NCBI GenBank assembly: GCA_050124975.1
Contig: JASFEF010000003.1
Location: 1-62,358 of the forward strand
From: Candidatus Thorarchaeota archaeon
GTDB lineage: Archaea > Asgardarchaeota > Thorarchaeia > Thorarchaeales > Thorarchaeaceae
Direction: 5' to 3'
Length of the DNA stretch: 62,358 nt
Positions within the stretch are counted from its first letter, which is position 1. Each line of letters starts with the position of its first letter. Of the stretch, positions 3,433 to 11,632 are shown piece after piece. Below the pieces are notes generated by a model that worked only from the letters and a program-made list of their open reading frames with translations, searched no databases and was not told the DNA's origin. A program made the translations under genes and the position numbers.

Positions 3433-4833
3433 TTAGTTTGGTTTGTAGACTCCCTTGTCACGGGCCCAGGATATTGTTTTAGGATCACAGCGCTTGAGCT
3501 CACGTTCAGGGAAGTCACTTAGTAGGTTCCAACCGATGTCAAGTGTTTGCTCAAATGATCGGTCCTCAAACTCACCCTGATTGATGAATTGGGACTCAAA
3601 CTTGTCTGCAAATTTGAGATACTTCTGGTCTCTTTCTGTCAGTGCCTCAGATCCGACGACTGCCACAAGATCACGAAGGTCTCGACCCTCGGAATAGGCA
3701 TAGTAGAGTTGTGCCTGTATTTCCTTGTGATCAAACCGGGTCATTCCTTCACCAATTCCTTCTTTCATCAATCGACTCAGAGATGGACCAGGATCGATTG
3801 GTGGGAAGATACCTCTCCTATGAAGTCCTCTTCCAACAATTATCTGACCCTCAGTGATGTATCCTGTGAGGTCAGGAATAGGATGAGTCATGTCATCCTG
3901 TGGCATGGAGAGAATTGGCATTTGAGTGATTGTTCCATTCCTTCCATGTATACGACCAGCTCGTTCATAGATTAGACTGAGGTCGGTGTAAAGATAACCA
4001 GGATATCCACGTCGTCCAGGCACCTCAGACCTTGCAGCACTAATCTCACGCAGTGCCTCTGCGTAGTTGGTCATATCTGTGAGAATAACTAGGACGTGCA
4101 TATCAGCCGTATAAGCCAAGTATTCTGCTGCGGTGAGTGCAGCCCTAGGAGTTATAATACGTTCAATGGCAGGGTCATTTGCAAGATTCAGAAAGAGTGT
4201 GGTATGTTCAAGAGCTCCTGTTTCTTCGAATGACTGCATGAAGTATTGAGCCTCAGTGGCTGTAATACCCATCGCACCGAACACAATAGCGAAATCACCC
4301 TCCTCACCGGGAATCTTAGCCTGTCGCACAATCTGTGCAGCTAGTCTATTATGAGGAAGACCGGAGCCTGAAAAGATTGGGAGTTTCTGTCCACGGACCA
4401 GTGTGTTAAGCCCATCAATCGCAGACACACCAGTCTGGATAGGCTGTCGTGGATATTGCCGTGCATAAGGATTGATTGGAGATCCGTAAATATCCCAGTG
4501 GTCCTCTGCAGTCAAGGGAGGTCCTTTGTCTAAGGGATTTCCAGCACCATCGAGTACTCTGCCCAGAATCTCTGATGAAACTGGAAGTTTAAGAGTTTCA
4601 CCCGTGAATCGTACAGCCGTTACATCCGTGTCAAGACCACTTGTACCTTCGAAAACCTGTATAACAGCACGGCCTTTGCCTGTTTCCAGAACTGTGCCTG
4701 TCAGTAACTCTCCAGTAGGAGACCTAATCTTCACGACTTCGTTGAATGATACATCATGCGTATTTTCAGCAACTAGTAACGGGCCACTAACATCAGAAAT
4801 TGTTCTGTACACGATTGAGGATTCTTTGGACAT
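3433..4833 (-). CDS. atpB: A-type (A1Ao) ATP synthase subunit B
   Basis: 466 aa. The N-terminus [16 protein letters not shown], the non-catalytic nucleotide-site region and the C-terminal helical domain are typical of archaeal/V-type B subunits. Confidence 0.95.
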
Positions 4834-4911
4834 TGTAGATACCGCCGTGGTCTTTCAGTATATGCTTCACTGCCGTAAAAGCAGCCGAGTTTTAAGAGTT
4901 ACGAAGTGCAT

Positions 4912-5427
4912 CTACAACCATACAACAACATGCAAGAAAGCAAGAATTGGTGCTAGCATCAATGCTCTAACTATTAGGGACTTGCCTTTTCCAGTAATAT
5001 CGTTTGCATTTGGTGTGAAGTATAGAATAGCTCCCACCAATAGACAGATTGCAGCAACAGCATCACCCAACCAGACTAGTAGGGAGATTAGCTCAACGTC
5101 ACTCATTCCAACAAATTGAAGCCATGCTGTTGTGGCACTCTCTAGCGTGATTGTTTCAACGCCACTGAATTGAGCAAACAGATTGACGATTAAGGGACCA
5201 ACGAAATATAGGACAATTCCCAATCCAACTAAGAACTTTGCCAGCCCATCACCTAGTCCAGTGGCGTATACCATAAACCCGATTAGAACGAAGATTAAGT
5301 AGCCACGGATGGCCAATGCAAAAAAGACATTCAAGATATCACTAACAGTATTGAACCAGTTCTCAGGCATCTGTAGATCAAAGGGAGATTGAAGCATTAG
5401 AAGCACTAGACTGACCATATGGCTCAC
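4912..5427 (-). CDS. Multi-pass membrane protein of unknown function
   Basis: 171 aa with 4-5 hydrophobic helices. Located between atpB and udg on the same strand. Confidence 0.55.
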   Translation of the reverse strand: MSHMVSLVLLMLQSPFDLQMPENWFNTVSDILNVFFALAIRGYLIFVLIGFMVYATGLGDGLAKFLVGLGIVLYFVGPLIVNLFAQFSGVETITLESATTAWLQFVGMSDVELISLLVWLGDAVAAICLLVGAILYFTPNANDITGKGKSLIVRALMLAPILAFLHVVVWL

Positions 5428-5462
5428 AGAAAGGAGTCAGTATGAGTGGATATAACGACCAC

Positions 5463-6014
5463 TCAAACGAGTTCTTGGCTGAGAAGATGAAAGTCCTTTC
5501 TCATTGCAGTTTTTATCTTGGGAAATCTGAGGGCTGCGGCAGGATGATAGGTCATGAAGTATTTCCTGTCACCATTTTCAAAGAACTTACCATGAGCCTC
5601 TGAAACCTTCCAAGGACCAATGAAAGAGGAGATTGCTACACCTCCTAAGAGAACTATGATTTGGGGGTTGATTATCTCAATCTGCCGCTCGAGATATGGT
5701 TTACAGGTATCAATCTCAGTCTTAGTAGGAGACCTGTTTCTCGGAGGTCTTGACTTTAGAATTGACGTGATAAAGACAGTGTTTCTAGAAAGTCCGATTT
5801 CTTGAATCATAGATATCAAGAGCTCTCCAGATTTTCCAACAAAAGGGCGACCAGACTCATCCTCTTTTGCACCGGGGGCCTCACCGACAAACATCACACT
5901 AGAGGTAATTGGTCCCTCACCCGGAACTGCATTCGTACGGGTCTTGTGTAAAGGACAAAGTGCGCAGTGTCTAATCTCATTATGCAGATCTTCAAGCTGT
6001 TCCTTACGCGTCAT
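5463..6014 (-). CDS. udg: Uracil-DNA glycosylase, family 4
   Basis: CALCPLHKTRTNAVPGEG ... MFVGEAPGAKEDESGRPFVGKSG ... HPAA match the family 4 UDG Fe-S cysteine and GEAPG motifs. Confidence 0.9.
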   Translation of the reverse strand: MTRKEQLEDLHNEIRHCALCPLHKTRTNAVPGEGPITSSVMFVGEAPGAKEDESGRPFVGKSGELLISMIQEIGLSRNTVFITSILKSRPPRNRSPTKTEIDTCKPYLERQIEIINPQIIVLLGGVAISSFIGPWKVSEAHGKFFENGDRKYFMTYHPAAALRFPKIKTAMRKDFHLLSQELV

Positions 6015-6079
6015 GTCTACTAGCTAAAATACACACATAGCGATAAAGGCCACGTATTTTCTGTGGCAACTTCGTTCAA

Positions 6080-7885
6080 TCATGCAGATTCTTGGTACAA
6101 AAGACCTGACTCTGACATCTCTTGGAGTAGTGATTGAAACTCTCCTTCTATCTTCTTCTCAATTGCATCCATTGTTTCATCATATGAGTCCCAAGGTGAG
6201 ATCTTCATTCTGGCGATGTTGTCAAGAACACTAAGCTCTAAGATTCTCCGGACTTGAACACCCATTTGTACAGCTTCTGTCATTTTGTGTGCGAAGTTGA
6301 TGATTATCTTCAACATTCGGTATGTCTTCCCGAGGGGTGAATACGTATCAATCTCATGTAGCGCACTCTGTGTCAGGAAGTCTTCCTTGATCATACGTGC
6401 AGCCTCTAGAATCGCACGTTCGGATTCTGGAAGTGCATCAGGACCTACAAGCTGGACAATTTCCCTAAGTTCTTGGTCCTTCTGGAGGAGAGCAAGAGCC
6501 TCTGTGACCAGTTCGGGCCAGTCGTCACCCATATTCTCTCTTTGCCATCTCTGAAGTGTGCCAAAGTAAAGTGAGTAGCTTGTCAGTGTGTTGATTGCCG
6601 GGAAGAACCTTCGAGCTGCAAGATCCTTATCCAGTGCCCAGAACACCTTTACAATCCGTAGAGTTGCTTGGGTGACAGGTTCTGAGAAGTCACCACCTGG
6701 AGGTGAAACAGCCCCACAGAGTGTGATTGAGCCGAGTTTTTCATCTGACCCAAGTGTCTTCACTCTTCCACCGCGCTCGTAGAACTGAGCCAGTCTTGAC
6801 CCAAGGTATGCGGGATAGCCCTCTTCAGATGGAAGCTGACCTAGACGACTTGAAATCTCACGCAACGCCTCAGCCCAACGGGAGGTGGAGTCAGCCATCA
6901 GAGCAACATCATAGCCTTGATCCCTGAAATATTCGGCAATTGTGACCGCCACATAGATTGAGGCTTCTCGAGCTGCAACAGGCATATTCGATGTGTTGGC
7001 AATAAGGACTGTCCGTTCCATCAAGGGGCGACCTGACTTCGGGTCTTTCAGATGTGGCCACTCCTCCAGTGCCTCAGTCATCTCATTTCCACGTTCACCA
7101 CATCCGACATAGACAACAACCTGTGCGTCAGCCCATTTGGCAAACTGGTGTAAAGTTACAGTCTTTCCAGTTCCGAAACCTCCTGGAATGGCACCTGTAC
7201 CACCTTTTGCTTGAGGCATGAAGGTATCAATGACTCGTTGTCCAGTCACAAGTGGAGTGTCCATCCCAACACGATCTTTGAATGGGCGACCCACTCTGAC
7301 AGGAGTCCTCTGCATCATCATGACATCATGGACATCGCCATGTTGGTCCTTTACCTTGCAGATGGTTTCATTGACTGTATACTCACCCTTATTGGCCAGT
7401 TCAACGATTTCACCCTGTACTCCCAAAGGAATGAGAATTTTAGATGTGATGATTCCAGTTTCAGGCACCTCGCCAATAATGTCGCCAGGTTCTACTTTGT
7501 TTCCTACTTTGACTGAGGGATTGAATTCCCATTTCTTCTCCTTATTGAGACCTTCAACACTAAGCCCTCTTGTGATAAAGTCGCCGGACATCTCACGTAG
7601 ATCGGGCAGAGGTCTCTGAATACCATCATAGATTGATCCTAGAAGGCCTGGACCGAGTTCTACTGACAACGAATCACCAGTGGCTTCCACTGGTTCACCG
7701 GGGGCAATACCAGATGTTTCTTCATAGACTTGGGCTGTAAACTCCTTATCTCCGACTTCAATCACTTCACCAATAATCTGCTGGTGCCCTACTCGAACAA
7801 CTTCATACATTCGAACAGCAGGAATACCAGAACACTGAACTACAGGTCCTGCAATGTTTTCAATTCGCCCAATTACTTTGGTCAA
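6080..7885 (-). CDS. atpA: A-type ATP synthase catalytic subunit A
   Basis: 601 aa. P-loop GGFGTGKTV, the non-homologous insert region of A subunits and a conserved C-terminal domain. No intein. Confidence 0.95.
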
Positions 7886-7912
7886 GGTTCAAATCTCCGG
7901 TTCAATCATAGA

Positions 7913-8269
7913 TTAGATGTTTATCTCGATTCCAACAGCTCTGCGAATCAGTTCTTTTAGCACTGTTTCATAGGCGCCAGTGGTTCCGTCTCTGTCAGGT
8001 ATCAGCAATATAACTGGTACGGGCGACTGGGACAGTTCAACAATCACATCTTCTACTTCTGCGGCCAAAGGTTCTGTGATCATGATAAGCCCCATAGAGG
8101 GGTTTCTGAAGAACTGATACAGCAAATCACGGGTTTCTTCGGGTGTTTTCGGAATAGCACATTCGCTAACACCGACCAACCGAAACCCGGTGACCGTATC
8201 CCTATCGCCAATCACTGCAATTTTATCACTAGACATGGATGCTACCACTGTAGTCGGACTTAGACTCAT
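7913..8269 (-). CDS. atpF: A-type ATP synthase subunit F
   Basis: KIAVIGDRDTVTGFRLVGV ... ILLIPD is the typical AtpF signature. The long ORF (to 8359) would overlap pyrI, so an internal ATG at 8269 or 8236 is the likely start. Confidence 0.85.
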   Translation of the reverse strand: MSLSPTTVVASMSSDKIAVIGDRDTVTGFRLVGVSECAIPKTPEETRDLLYQFFRNPSMGLIMITEPLAAEVEDVIVELSQSPVPVILLIPDRDGTTGAYETVLKELIRRAVGIEINI

Positions 8270-8318
8270 GCCAAGCTGTCCACTAAAAAAGCATTTGGAA
8301 TTGACGGGAGTACGAGTA

Positions 8319-8810
8319 TTAACCAGTAAATTGAGAAATGAAGTCTTGTTCTTCAACAATTGTCCAGCAATAGAGACATTTCAGCTTCACTGGTGTCTTT
8401 GATACGACTTCATACTTGCTTTGGATTGGCTCTCGCTCCTTGTTTGTCACGCACCTCTGATTTGGACACTGGAAGATGTCAGAGATTATCTCTGGAAGTT
8501 CAACTCTAGTCTTCTTTATGATTTTGAAATCCTCGATAAGGTTGATTGTGGCCTCTGGTGCAACAAGGGCAATCCGAGCAACCTCCTCATCTTCAAGGAA
8601 TCGATGTTCAACCTTCACAATGTCTTTCTTTCCAATCTTTGAGCTGGTTATGTTCATCGCCAATGAAACTATGTTCCCATCTTCGCCAGTAATTCCTAGG
8701 ATTTTAAGAACCTCTAGGGCTTTACCAGCCCTGATATGATCAATCACAGTTCCGTCATGAATTTTGACAATTCTGATCTTTTCAACACCAACTTTCTCAG
8801 ACATGTCCAA
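8319..8810 (-). CDS. pyrI: Aspartate carbamoyltransferase regulatory subunit
   Basis: VKIHDGTVIDHI allosteric-domain motif and the C-terminal zinc domain CPNQRCVTN ... LKCLYC. Confidence 0.9.
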   Translation of the reverse strand: MDMSEKVGVEKIRIVKIHDGTVIDHIRAGKALEVLKILGITGEDGNIVSLAMNITSSKIGKKDIVKVEHRFLEDEEVARIALVAPEATINLIEDFKIIKKTRVELPEIISDIFQCPNQRCVTNKEREPIQSKYEVVSKTPVKLKCLYCWTIVEEQDFISQFTG

Positions 8811-10240
8811 TCACACGCAGGTTCGTCCTATCAATCACCCGGTTTTAGACCTTCCCGTTTCCCGAAACCTAGACATTCCTAGACATTAGAGTCTTGGACT
8901 GATGTTCGGTTCCTGTTTCCTAGAGGTCCGCTCGACAAGTCCTGAGGACCCACCAAGTCTTACATCCTCTCCACAGGCAGTTAGGGTCTCCGGCAAACTG
9001 ACGGTGACCAGATTTAGTGCAGCGTTCAGATCCCTGTCGATCTGTAGCCCACACTGTTCACAAACATACTCTCGTTCCGAGAGCAATAACTCCTTCTTTA
9101 TGTGTCCACAGTGTGAACACAGCTTTGAGGAGGGAAAGGTCCTGGGCACAACGACAAGTTGCGAACCATACCACTGGCACTTGTACTCCAGTTGCCTCCT
9201 AAACTCGTAGAATCCCACATCTCCGATTGCCCGGGCCAGCCTCCGGTTCTTCATCATACCAGACACACACAAGTCCTCAATCACTATCTTGCTGTGGCTC
9301 TTGGCAAGATAGGTGGTTAACTTATGCAGATTATCCTGTCGGATGTTGAAAATTCTCAGGTACATCCTGGCTAAGCGTAACTTTGCTTTCTCGCTGTTCT
9401 TGCTCCCCTTCTTCTTTCGCGAGAGGCTTTTCGAGAACTGTCTGATTTTTTTGAGTTTCCTCCCAAAGGCTCGTGGATTGGCAAAGACAGTTCCATCAGA
9501 GAGTGTGGCCATTGTCTTGACACCAAGGTCCACACCCACCACCTGTCTATCTCTGGGTGTTGGATCAGGAATCTCCTCCTCCACAGTGACTGACACAAAC
9601 CATCGGTCAGCCCTCCTCCTCACTGTAATTGAGAGTATCCTTCCAGAATGATATCTTTCTCGCTTCTCCTTGATTCGGACCTTTCCGATTCGTGGGAGCT
9701 GAATCTTCCTTCCTTCGAACCTGATTGTCCCAGTCAGTCTGAAACTGTCCCTCACTCCCTTTCTCTTGAAGCGGGGAAATCCTATATTTTGTCCCTTCTT
9801 TAATCCTCGATAGAAGTTCTGGAAGGCTCGATGAAGGTCTCTGAGAGCCTCCTGTGGTGCGCACTTCGAACAGTCGTACATCCAAGGGAACTGGGTCTTC
9901 TTCAGACTGTTCAGTAGCTTGTGTTGCTTCATGGCATCAGTGAATCGTTCCTTTCCCTGGTTTGTCTTGATGAGAGTGATGCGTTGTTCGAGACCCCAGT
10001 TGTATGTAAAACGTGCGACTCCTGCATGTTGGTGAAGAGAAGACCTCTGATGGTTGTTGGGGTCGAGCTCGTACCTGTAGGCTTTGATAACCAACATGAG
10101 AGTCAGATGGTAGTGATGATAGTATAATAAAAGGTCATACGGAATTCAGTACATCTCTTAAGACAACAACTTGTTCTATGTTTCAGATTGTCTGAGTTCT
10201 TGGCAGTTGCTATCAAACTCTCCAAGCTTAAAGGCGAAGG
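8811..10240 (-). mobile_element. IS200/IS605-family (IS1341-like) element carrying only tnpB. Ends not defined.
   Basis: tnpB fills 8886-10097. No tnpA lies within the flanks. The boundaries given are simply the flanking intergenic limits. Confidence 0.5.
8886..10097 (-). CDS. tnpB: TnpB (OrfB) RNA-guided endonuclease, IS200/IS605 family
   Basis: N-terminal AYRYELDPN...FTYNWGLEQR. RuvC-I VGVDLGVK, RuvC-II IVIEDL, zinc ribbon CSHCG...CEQCG, RuvC-III DRDLNAALNL. Confidence 0.9.
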   Translation of the reverse strand: MLVIKAYRYELDPNNHQRSSLHQHAGVARFTYNWGLEQRITLIKTNQGKERFTDAMKQHKLLNSLKKTQFPWMYDCSKCAPQEALRDLHRAFQNFYRGLKKGQNIGFPRFKRKGVRDSFRLTGTIRFEGRKIQLPRIGKVRIKEKRERYHSGRILSITVRRRADRWFVSVTVEEEIPDPTPRDRQVVGVDLGVKTMATLSDGTVFANPRAFGRKLKKIRQFSKSLSRKKKGSKNSEKAKLRLARMYLRIFNIRQDNLHKLTTYLAKSHSKIVIEDLCVSGMMKNRRLARAIGDVGFYEFRRQLEYKCQWYGSQLVVVPRTFPSSKLCSHCGHIKKELLLSEREYVCEQCGLQIDRDLNAALNLVTVSLPETLTACGEDVRLGGSSGLVERTSRKQEPNISPRL

Positions 10241-10288
10241 TTGATATGCACAGCAGATGGACCACTCCCAGAAGACGGTGATGGTGTC

Positions 10289-11632
10289 TTGGTTTTAGAA
10301 GGACTTGGAAAATCACTCAACTCAGCTCTAAAGAAGCTCTTCGGCGCAAGTGTCGTAGACGAGGAATTAGTGAAGGAGTTAGTGAAAGACATCCAACGTG
10401 CCCTATTGGTTGCTGACGTGGATGTCAATCTTGTTATGGCAATAACTGAGAGAGTACAAGAACAAGCCCTAGACGAAACCCTGCCAAGAGGTGTATCACG
10501 TCGTGAACATGTAGTCCGTGTTGTTTGGGACACTCTGGCATTTTTCTTGGGAGAGAAGACAGTTCCATTGACAATCAACCCAGGAAAGCCCAACCTTGTT
10601 ATGATGGTGGGCATTCAAGGATCGGGAAAGACAACAACCATCGGGAAACTTGCCCGATACTATCAGAAGCGGGGTATTAAGACGGGAGTGATCTGTGCAG
10701 ACAATTTCAGACCAGGAGCCTATAACCAGTTAAAGCAACTTGCTGAGAAATCAAATGTTCCTTTCTGGGGAGATGAGGAAGAAAAAGACGCCACAAAGCT
10801 AGCAAAGAAAGGCGTTAAAGAGATGCAGAAGAAAGGGATTGAACTCATTCTCCTAGACACTTCGGGTAGGCATAGAGAAGAAACTGGACTCATCAAAGAA
10901 ATGCGCGATATCTCAAAGAGTGTAAAACCCCAAGAGATTGTCTTGGTCATAGATGGCACTCTTGGTCAGCAAGCAGGGGTTCAAGCTGCTGCTTTCCAGA
11001 AGGCAACAGACATTGGATCGATAATAATCACTAAACTTGATGGAGGTGCCAAAGGTGGTGGTGCGCTCTCAGCTGTTGCAGCAACACAAGCGCCAATCAA
11101 GTTCATTGGTGTTGGAGAAGGAATGGATGCCATTGAGCCTTTCAATCCAACAAAGTTTGCTGGACGACTTCTTGGAATGTCAGATATCCGAGGACTCATA
11201 GATAAAGTGCGGGAGGCTCAGATTGAGGTCGAAGAAGACGCTGCGAAGAGGATTATGAAGGGGCAGTTCTCATTGAAGGATATGATGGCCCAGATGAAGC
11301 AGCTCAAGAAGATGGGGCCGATTGGGAAAGTCCTGGAGATGTTAGGCCTTCAATACAAACTCCCTGAAGGAATGGCGGAGATTCAAGAAGAGAACATGAA
11401 GCGATGGGAAGTAATAATGAATTCAATGACAAAGACTGAGTTAGAGGAGCCCAAGTTGATCAAATCGTCAAGGATCAAGCGAATTGCCAAAGGCTCTGGA
11501 ACCTCTCAGAAAGATGTCAGAGACCTCCTCAAGCAACATGAACAAATGAAGAAGATGATGAAGGCGATGGGTAAACAACGCAGAGGCCGGAAAGGAGGAA
11601 TTCCTGGATTTCCAGGTCTTCCAGGTACATGA
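10289..11632 (+). CDS. srp54: Signal recognition particle protein SRP54
   Basis: NG domain GIQGSGKTTT, DTSGR and TKLDG, plus a Met-rich M domain. The ORF opens at 10241, but TTG at 10289 gives the canonical MVLEGLGKSL N-terminus. Confidence 0.95.
   Translation: MVLEGLGKSLNSALKKLFGASVVDEELVKELVKDIQRALLVADVDVNLVMAITERVQEQALDETLPRGVSRREHVVRVVWDTLAFFLGEKTVPLTINPGKPNLVMMVGIQGSGKTTTIGKLARYYQKRGIKTGVICADNFRPGAYNQLKQLAEKSNVPFWGDEEEKDATKLAKKGVKEMQKKGIELILLDTSGRHREETGLIKEMRDISKSVKPQEIVLVIDGTLGQQAGVQAAAFQKATDIGSIIITKLDGGAKGGGALSAVAATQAPIKFIGVGEGMDAIEPFNPTKFAGRLLGMSDIRGLIDKVREAQIEVEEDAAKRIMKGQFSLKDMMAQMKQLKKMGPIGKVLEMLGLQYKLPEGMAEIQEENMKRWEVIMNSMTKTELEEPKLIKSSRIKRIAKGSGTSQKDVRDLLKQHEQMKKMMKAMGKQRRGRKGGIPGFPGLPGT

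Follow-up and report, generated by a model that had tools for sequence, protein, structure and literature searches.

A non-autonomous IS607-type TnpB element between the SRP54 and pyrI genes of a Candidatus Thorarchaeota genome

The window analysed here, the whole stretch of 62,358 nucleotides from contig JASFEF010000003.1 of a Candidatus Thorarchaeota archaeon (genome G000, assembly 88% complete), carries an ordinary non-autonomous TnpB element of the IS607 type, which is unconnected with the location of pyrB. The element has definite boundaries, a matching empty site, ends of the GG type, a structured RNA at its right end and an intact open reading frame (Table 1). Judged from these sequence features it is a non-autonomous derivative of the IS607 family and not a full member, since it contains no serine-recombinase tnpA.

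Boundaries, insertion site and the pyrB question

In silico excision of 1,362 bp restores a sequence that is colinear with, and equal in length to, the empty site of G009, the closest relative compared, apart from three differences within the 11 nt to the left of the junction. A preliminary description of this DNA had placed the element at 8811-10240, a span that is wrong at both limits according to the empty-site comparison: the element starts at 10218 and ends in AACGG, the last GG lying at 8856-8855, beyond which 8854-8811 belongs to the host. In two other sequencing runs, sister elements likewise have loose ends at 8855. Three further wetland runs, which may stem from a single campaign, contain the filled allele; among the contigs of these three DNA runs, which by themselves cannot establish absence, none skipped the element as an empty local target for homing would.

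The target is a G-run (GGGG, then GAAGG) immediately upstream of the pyrI TATA-like box, and the element was inserted between the back-to-back promoter-like motifs of SRP54 and pyrI without a target-site duplication. Clean empty sites are available for the window element and six others of the same genome, and in all seven the junction carries (A/G)(A/G)GG and, to within a single G, nothing is duplicated; RRGG is the target motif deduced from these insertion sites. Nearly all family copies have AACGG right ends, and GG is the commonest dinucleotide (14 times) among 28 automatically picked left junctions, a few of which were mis-picked. Left cores other than GG occur commonly in the family, and an empty GGGG is altered in a similar manner at two filled sites, namely to GAGT in the window (10217-10220) and to GAGA elsewhere (L086:1443-1446).

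A left-end weight matrix trained on other genomes only scored the window left end, which lies only 119 nt from the tnpB ATG, at 28.6 bits, the lowest value among the recognised tnpB left ends of this genome, in which all 14 sites above 20 bits are element ends. The same matrix matches the reverse strand of right ends, and the right-end repeats of the window element are inverted relative to its left-end repeats, which yields an imperfect inverted repeat.

Table 1. Coordinates of the element, its host neighbours and related loci (positions refer to the window unless a locus or contig is named)
Feature	Position	Strand	Remarks
Host pyrI, outside the element	8319..8804	-	TIGR00240 above cut-off; promoter-like motif kept and conserved in relatives
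Predicted guide, host flank	8839..8854	-	length assumed, ~16 nt; contains pyrI TATA-like box 8849-8843
Complete non-autonomous IS607-type element with its two core dinucleotides	8855..10218	-	net insertion 1,362 bp
Right end	8855..8887	-	two 9-nt repeats 10 nt apart (8869-8877, 8879-8887), then AACGG
omega-RNA scaffold core	8855..9009	-	nested stems and pseudoknot (first loop with 3' end); covariation
tnpB	8886..10097	-	403 aa; RuvC D190/E274/D356; zinc finger C327-C330, C346-C349
Probable 5' hairpin of the omega-RNA, within tnpB coding region	9015..9055	-	z -2.7
BRE/TATA-like promoter, ~30 nt before tnpB ATG	10123..10140	-	same motif at same distance in 25 family members
Left end, two degenerate short repeats (putative TnpA-binding motifs)	10175..10216	-	weight-matrix match
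Left core dinucleotide	10217..10218	-	GT; GG in empty alleles and most family members
Host SRP54 promoter-like motif, intact after insertion	10230..10248	+	nearly invariant in 15 relatives; putative function
Host SRP54	10289..11632	+	normal divergent neighbour of pyrI in the Thorarchaeota family
Paralogue C1b, in ribosome-binding motif of pelota, behind LonB-like gene	L088:1544-2906 (G000:C1:13443-14807)		site also in L135 (G017:C27), L136 (G009:C50)
ORF-less mini-elements	L090:1178-1485, L092:1170-1470, L091:1219-1519		also L093, L094
Large Thorarchaeal IS607 elements, ~8 kb	L223-L231		e.g. L225:73-8100

The earlier suggestion was that the element sits where pyrB should precede pyrI, from which one could imagine that a pyrBI operon was disrupted and its pyrB pushed aside or substituted by the element. 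pyrB is indeed missing from the window, and it adjoins pyrI, as was assumed to be normal, in 15 genomes of other, more distant families of the phylum, for which the assumption is reasonable. Within the family, however, none of the 34 relatives that have both genes, all of them without the element, shows linkage of pyrB and pyrI (in G035 the two share one contig, 364 kb apart), an outcome that the preliminary description had itself named as refuting its reading. SRP54 is the divergent upstream neighbour at 28 of 29 pyrI loci of relatives, and a different gene takes its place at the remaining one; the intergenic region measures only 116-146 nt, and neither pyrB nor tnpB was found upstream of pyrI at any of the 29, pyrB thus never occupying the empty site in the family. 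Moreover, the proposed look elsewhere in the genome recovered an intact pyrB on another contig (G000:C1:61613-62506; TIGR00670, 379 bits), which is the sole aspartate carbamoyltransferase gene. The split of pyrB and pyrI predates the insertion, and the displacement of pyrB is refuted, which removes a false story of an insertion sequence breaking pyrBI. The genome holds five genes of the ATCase/OTCase family (L001-L005), namely the one pyrB, two ornithine carbamoyltransferase genes and two other members.

The promoter-like motif of pyrI (8854-8843, putative in function) is kept beside the element, as is that of SRP54, and the insertion site hence looks neutral. The 75 nt reported between tnpB and pyrI are correct if counted to a TTG, whereas the ATG used in relatives lies at 8804, 81 nt away. 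The strongly conserved region upstream of SRP54 (10230-10288) likely comprises BRE/TATA and a short leader, and SRP54 probably starts at TTG 10289 and not at 10241; the idea of a conserved ORF ahead of SRP54 was dismissed because neither frame nor stop is kept. On the other side (3433-8810), atpF directly follows pyrI in nearly all relatives, and atpA and atpB are parted in the window by genes for a uracil-DNA glycosylase and a membrane ORF.

The TnpB protein and its predicted omega-RNA

Profile searches found no tnpA in the window, in line with the description of tnpB as a solo gene. Its D/E/D triad is intact, as had been noted, both by reading of the motifs (VDLG at 189, IEDL at 273, DRDLNAA at 354) and by alignment with the solved TnpB 8h1j/8bf8, whose catalytic positions they match, and the two CxxC pairs, likewise noted before, stand at residues 327 and 346. 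No other natural protein of solved structure matches as well as 8h1j/8bf8 (E 2e-71), which we take to be ISDra2 TnpB. The protein scores above cut-off with the Pfam models HTH_OrfB, OrfB_IS605 and TNB, passes the guided_TnpB model (342 against a cut-off of 100) and has its nearest named relatives (74-83% identity) almost exclusively in Thorarchaeota. Against every close relative its dN/dS is about 0.1, a pairwise value that spans the pre-insertion history too and is no measure of selection at the window site. The glutamate is canonical, 53 residues before the zinc finger, and RuvC-I reads DLG, not the DPG that, together with a relocated glutamate, characterises the TnpB of Fanzor/pro-Fanzor type (PMC10711439); a pro-Fanzor identity was consequently rejected. 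From the position of its promoter motif, the tnpB transcript would be leaderless or have a short leader. A sigma-70 promoter scan was set aside as not applicable to an archaeon.

The assumption that an omega-RNA overlaps the 3' end of tnpB is borne out by a covarying predicted structure across 30 aligned right ends, although the limits given for the scaffold (roughly 8811-9000) have to be corrected, as it ends with the GG at 8856-8855. In this alignment, 85.9% of the cells are paired, and changes on both sides occur at 16 pairs, a count that is inflated by kinship among the sequences; none of 500 shuffles was as good, and slid controls were clearly worse. The pseudoknot is 99% paired, with one position reading U-G, U-A or G-C in 29 of the 30 sequences. 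The predicted RNA extends over about 9055-8855, and a hairpin equivalent to that at its 5' end recurs in the corresponding position of paralogue C14 and of two ORF-less copies. No Rfam family matched in a scan over the scaffold, and a single-sequence fold of the whole scaffold was no better than shuffles (z -0.06).

A guide reading into the pyrI upstream region had also been foreseen, and the predicted guide does coincide with the pyrI promoter flank. This stretch differs between copies and is host-derived in each. Neither a second match within two mismatches nor an off-target site with a clear RRGG was found for the guide in G000; its sole match there, the filled site itself, is preceded by ACGG and not RRGG; self-cutting would thereby be avoided, if position -3 is read as in CboTnpB. 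Taken together, the intact RuvC and zinc finger, the structured right-end RNA and the variable 3' guide point to a predicted OMEGA nuclease.

Because the guide spans the pyrI TATA-like box and read-through would run in the same direction as pyrI-atpF-atpA, one could speculate that TnpB has been domesticated as a TldR-like, RNA-guided regulator of the pyrI-atp promoter. However, the catalytic RuvC residues are all in place, the guide is nothing but adjoining host sequence, which is true of every copy, its sole genomic match follows ACGG and not RRGG, and 29 relatives lack the insertion, all of which makes such a role highly improbable. In the one metatranscriptome available, pyrI and SRP54 are covered and tnpB and the scaffold are not; it consists of contigs only, from which absence, level and strand cannot be read.

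Copies, mobility and spread of the family

Further copies, which the preliminary description had advised to look for, exist in the form of five tnpB paralogues and five ORF-less RNA copies with ends in common. The paralogues have diverged from the window TnpB (67-84% amino-acid identity) and from one another (dS 0.8-1.5), and no two are near-identical; as no tnpA was found in the genome either, no recent transposition is visible. Three of the ORF-less copies have both ends (301-308 bp). These mini-elements comprise the left end, a TATA-like motif, the full omega-RNA and the right end, with empty sites confirmed for two, and they could supply guides in trans. No partial copies were found at the contig ends of G000. 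Of 27 further genomes belonging to the genus, 11 contain family members, none of which is located at the window site. An isolated left-end-like motif of a type known from another genus (19.7 bits) lies near 9245 on the minus strand of G000:C63, with neither tnpB nor a right end found nearby, and one family member in another genome (L042, G015:C19) has no left end and directly follows a tRNA-like sequence.

The question arises which enzyme would move these elements. Searches of the 88%-complete G000 for Y1 transposase, resolvase or IS607 tnpA (NF033518/PF00239, PF01797) found none, absence thus not being established, and two Thorarchaeal tnpA subfamilies used as queries gave no match there. The window TnpB falls into a clade (100/100) of 17 solo elements, 0 of 17 having tnpA. 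Other Thorarchaeal genomes contain large IS607 elements in which tnpA is accompanied by a convergent ORF of 1,200-1,860 aa and a TnpB of ~700 aa, and which end in GG and AACGG. With the left-end matrix of the solo elements they score 25-45 bits, like many solos, against -5 and -15 for the nearest tnpA-tnpB relatives. No such large element was found in the 88%-complete G000, and co-occurrence is partial: several solo-rich genomes carry tnpA of the large-element type, G000 does not. The giant ORF has no Pfam or PDB match, and its identity as Cas1, which would recall the described aCas1-TnpB loci (PMC10691335), is unsupported by profile searches of Pfam, NCBIfam and PDB. The large element is hence a candidate helper, and we tentatively suggest, at somewhat less than even chances, that the solo clade is long-lived and, as its members encode no transposase, makes use of serine TnpA from the ~8-kb element by way of shared end motifs, and that it persists at fixed sites, even across species, by RNA-guided homing. 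An unsampled cognate tnpA-tnpB parent is a possible alternative to a borrowed enzyme.

Transfer across species is seen at pelota. Paralogue C1b has a 95.7% identical counterpart at the same junction in Thorarchaeota AB_25, with a dS of 0.105 compared to 0.87-0.89 in the flanking genes, which makes lateral transfer of this element clear; a third species has a different family member there, and three others are empty. Flank identity reaches 50/50 and 47/50 beside the junctions. However, genomes with an empty site also show higher conservation in the first 150 nt, and with so weak a signal of co-conversion, homing is inseparable from independent insertion at a hot spot, which is possible. At the window site, no signal of flank co-conversion was found.

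From our point of view, the window element very probably is a non-autonomous IS607-family derivative of Thorarchaeota that would rely on insertion in trans, an omega-RNA and selective cutting. A serine TnpA acting in trans would, by the IS607 paradigm, bind the short end repeats, and a circular copy would have recombined into a GG within the run of G that separates the SRP54 promoter from that of pyrI, each of the two being kept. The element's own promoter would then give rise to a tnpB transcript whose 3' part serves as omega-RNA with the pyrI-side flank as guide. TnpB would cut empty alleles only, where RRGG stands beside the guide match, and not the filled allele with its ACGG, and repair from the filled copy would keep or spread the element. 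The GT left core means that the window copy may be locked in; with mismatched cores (GT/GG) and no transposase found in the genome it is now probably hard to excise, and our analysis suggests an intact but probably immobile element.

It could further be imagined that the element, while of the same origin, is by now an inert fossil, either untranscribed or unable to cut, that is intact for lack of time to decay. The core mismatch, the weakest left end, the failure to find a transposase in the 88%-complete genome and the fate of C1b, which in G000 is already frameshifted by a 1-nt deletion near codon 9, would fit with this idea. Against it speak the intact ORF, promoter motif and core RNA stems, the central hairpin of the scaffold, which is divergent in sequence and still folds, and the differences from the family consensus, which are mostly synonymous (39 versus 8 others, counted at conserved codons only). 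We therefore consider the fossil state rather unlikely, though not negligible.

What the non-autonomous IS607 derivative offers is a small TnpB of Asgard origin, suited to a standard assay, with an RNA scaffold, ends and an RRGG target motif that can be read from the sequence; a literature search found no paper naming both Thorarchaeota and TnpB. The remaining interest lies not in the window locus but in the family, with its possibly borrowed transposase and its sharing of sites across species, which provides natural test cases for the trans mobilisation of solo tnpB genes and for TnpB-driven homing, mostly shown in E. coli.

Family assignment and comparison with known systems

Elements such as IS607, IS1535 and ISC1926 are characterised by a GG crossover, the lack of target duplication and short direct repeats at their ends (PMC6188088), and the window element shares with them GG at the target and right terminus, no duplication and short end repeats, its left core being GT. 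In addition, all five loci found for transposase-bearing relatives (L067, L069, L180, L181, L183) have a serine tnpA directly upstream, and the two nearest tnpA-bearing Thorarchaeal elements encode TnpBs 67-69% identical to that of the window and have the right end in common.

The label 'IS1341-like' given before is apt for the tnpB-only architecture but misleading as to lineage, as ends, core, target and autonomous relatives indicate a serine-recombinase IS607 element. If taken literally, it would imply an IS200/IS605 derivative of the IS1341 group moved by a Y1 HUH transposase with TTGAT (10216-10212) as target motif. tnpB is indeed the only gene, TTGAT is the target of ISDra2 (PMC13565253), and the protein reaches 348 bits with the IS200_TnpB model. 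This score, however, is far below the cut-off of 425, while the IS607_TnpB model (NF038280) gives 345.2 bits against a cut-off of 350. The empty sites place TTGAT inside the element, where it varies between copies, the targets are rich in purine and G and show no T-rich tetra- or pentanucleotide, PF01797 was not found in the 88%-complete G000, the transposase-bearing relatives carry serine TnpA, and a distant group of Thorarchaeal TnpBs whose right ends read TTCAC falls into a clade of its own. A Y1-driven origin is thus extremely unlikely. This distant group (L053-L056; 36-39% identity) is IS605-like.

Compared with known systems, the window element resembles the IS1341 group in having tnpB alone between two ends over ~1.3-1.4 kb (PMC9956272, PMC13565253), but that group is classed under IS200/IS605, whereas ends and target here are of the IS607 type; ISDra2 likewise differs as a Y1 element with a TTGAT target. 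With IS607, IS1535 and ISC1926 (PMC6188088) it has in common the direct repeats at each end and an imperfect subterminal inverted repeat, although its repeat motif is unrelated in sequence and it has no transposase gene. ISXfa1 (PMC10711439) and CboIStron (bioRxiv 10.1101/2023.11.20.567912) share with it the GG core at the ends, a G-rich target motif, a scaffold ending in CGG, a pseudoknot to the 3' end and a canonical RuvC. In the IS607-type CboIStron, which has a GG core and a TGGG TAM, mismatched cores block excision, and an element can receive a left core other than GG from its donor circle (10.1101/2023.11.20.567912). Unlike these two, the window element has neither tnpA nor a group I intron, uses an archaeal promoter and shows a deduced RRGG motif instead of TGGG or GGG, with a GT left core. 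Finally, mobilisation of solo TnpBs in trans has already been proposed, alongside standalone omega-RNAs (PMC10691335), and as in those systems, solo tnpB and ORF-less copies here bear the same ends as transposase-bearing elements; what differs is that the element whose left end matches best encodes another kind of TnpB (~700 aa) together with a giant convergent ORF and is not one of the closest tnpA-tnpB relatives.
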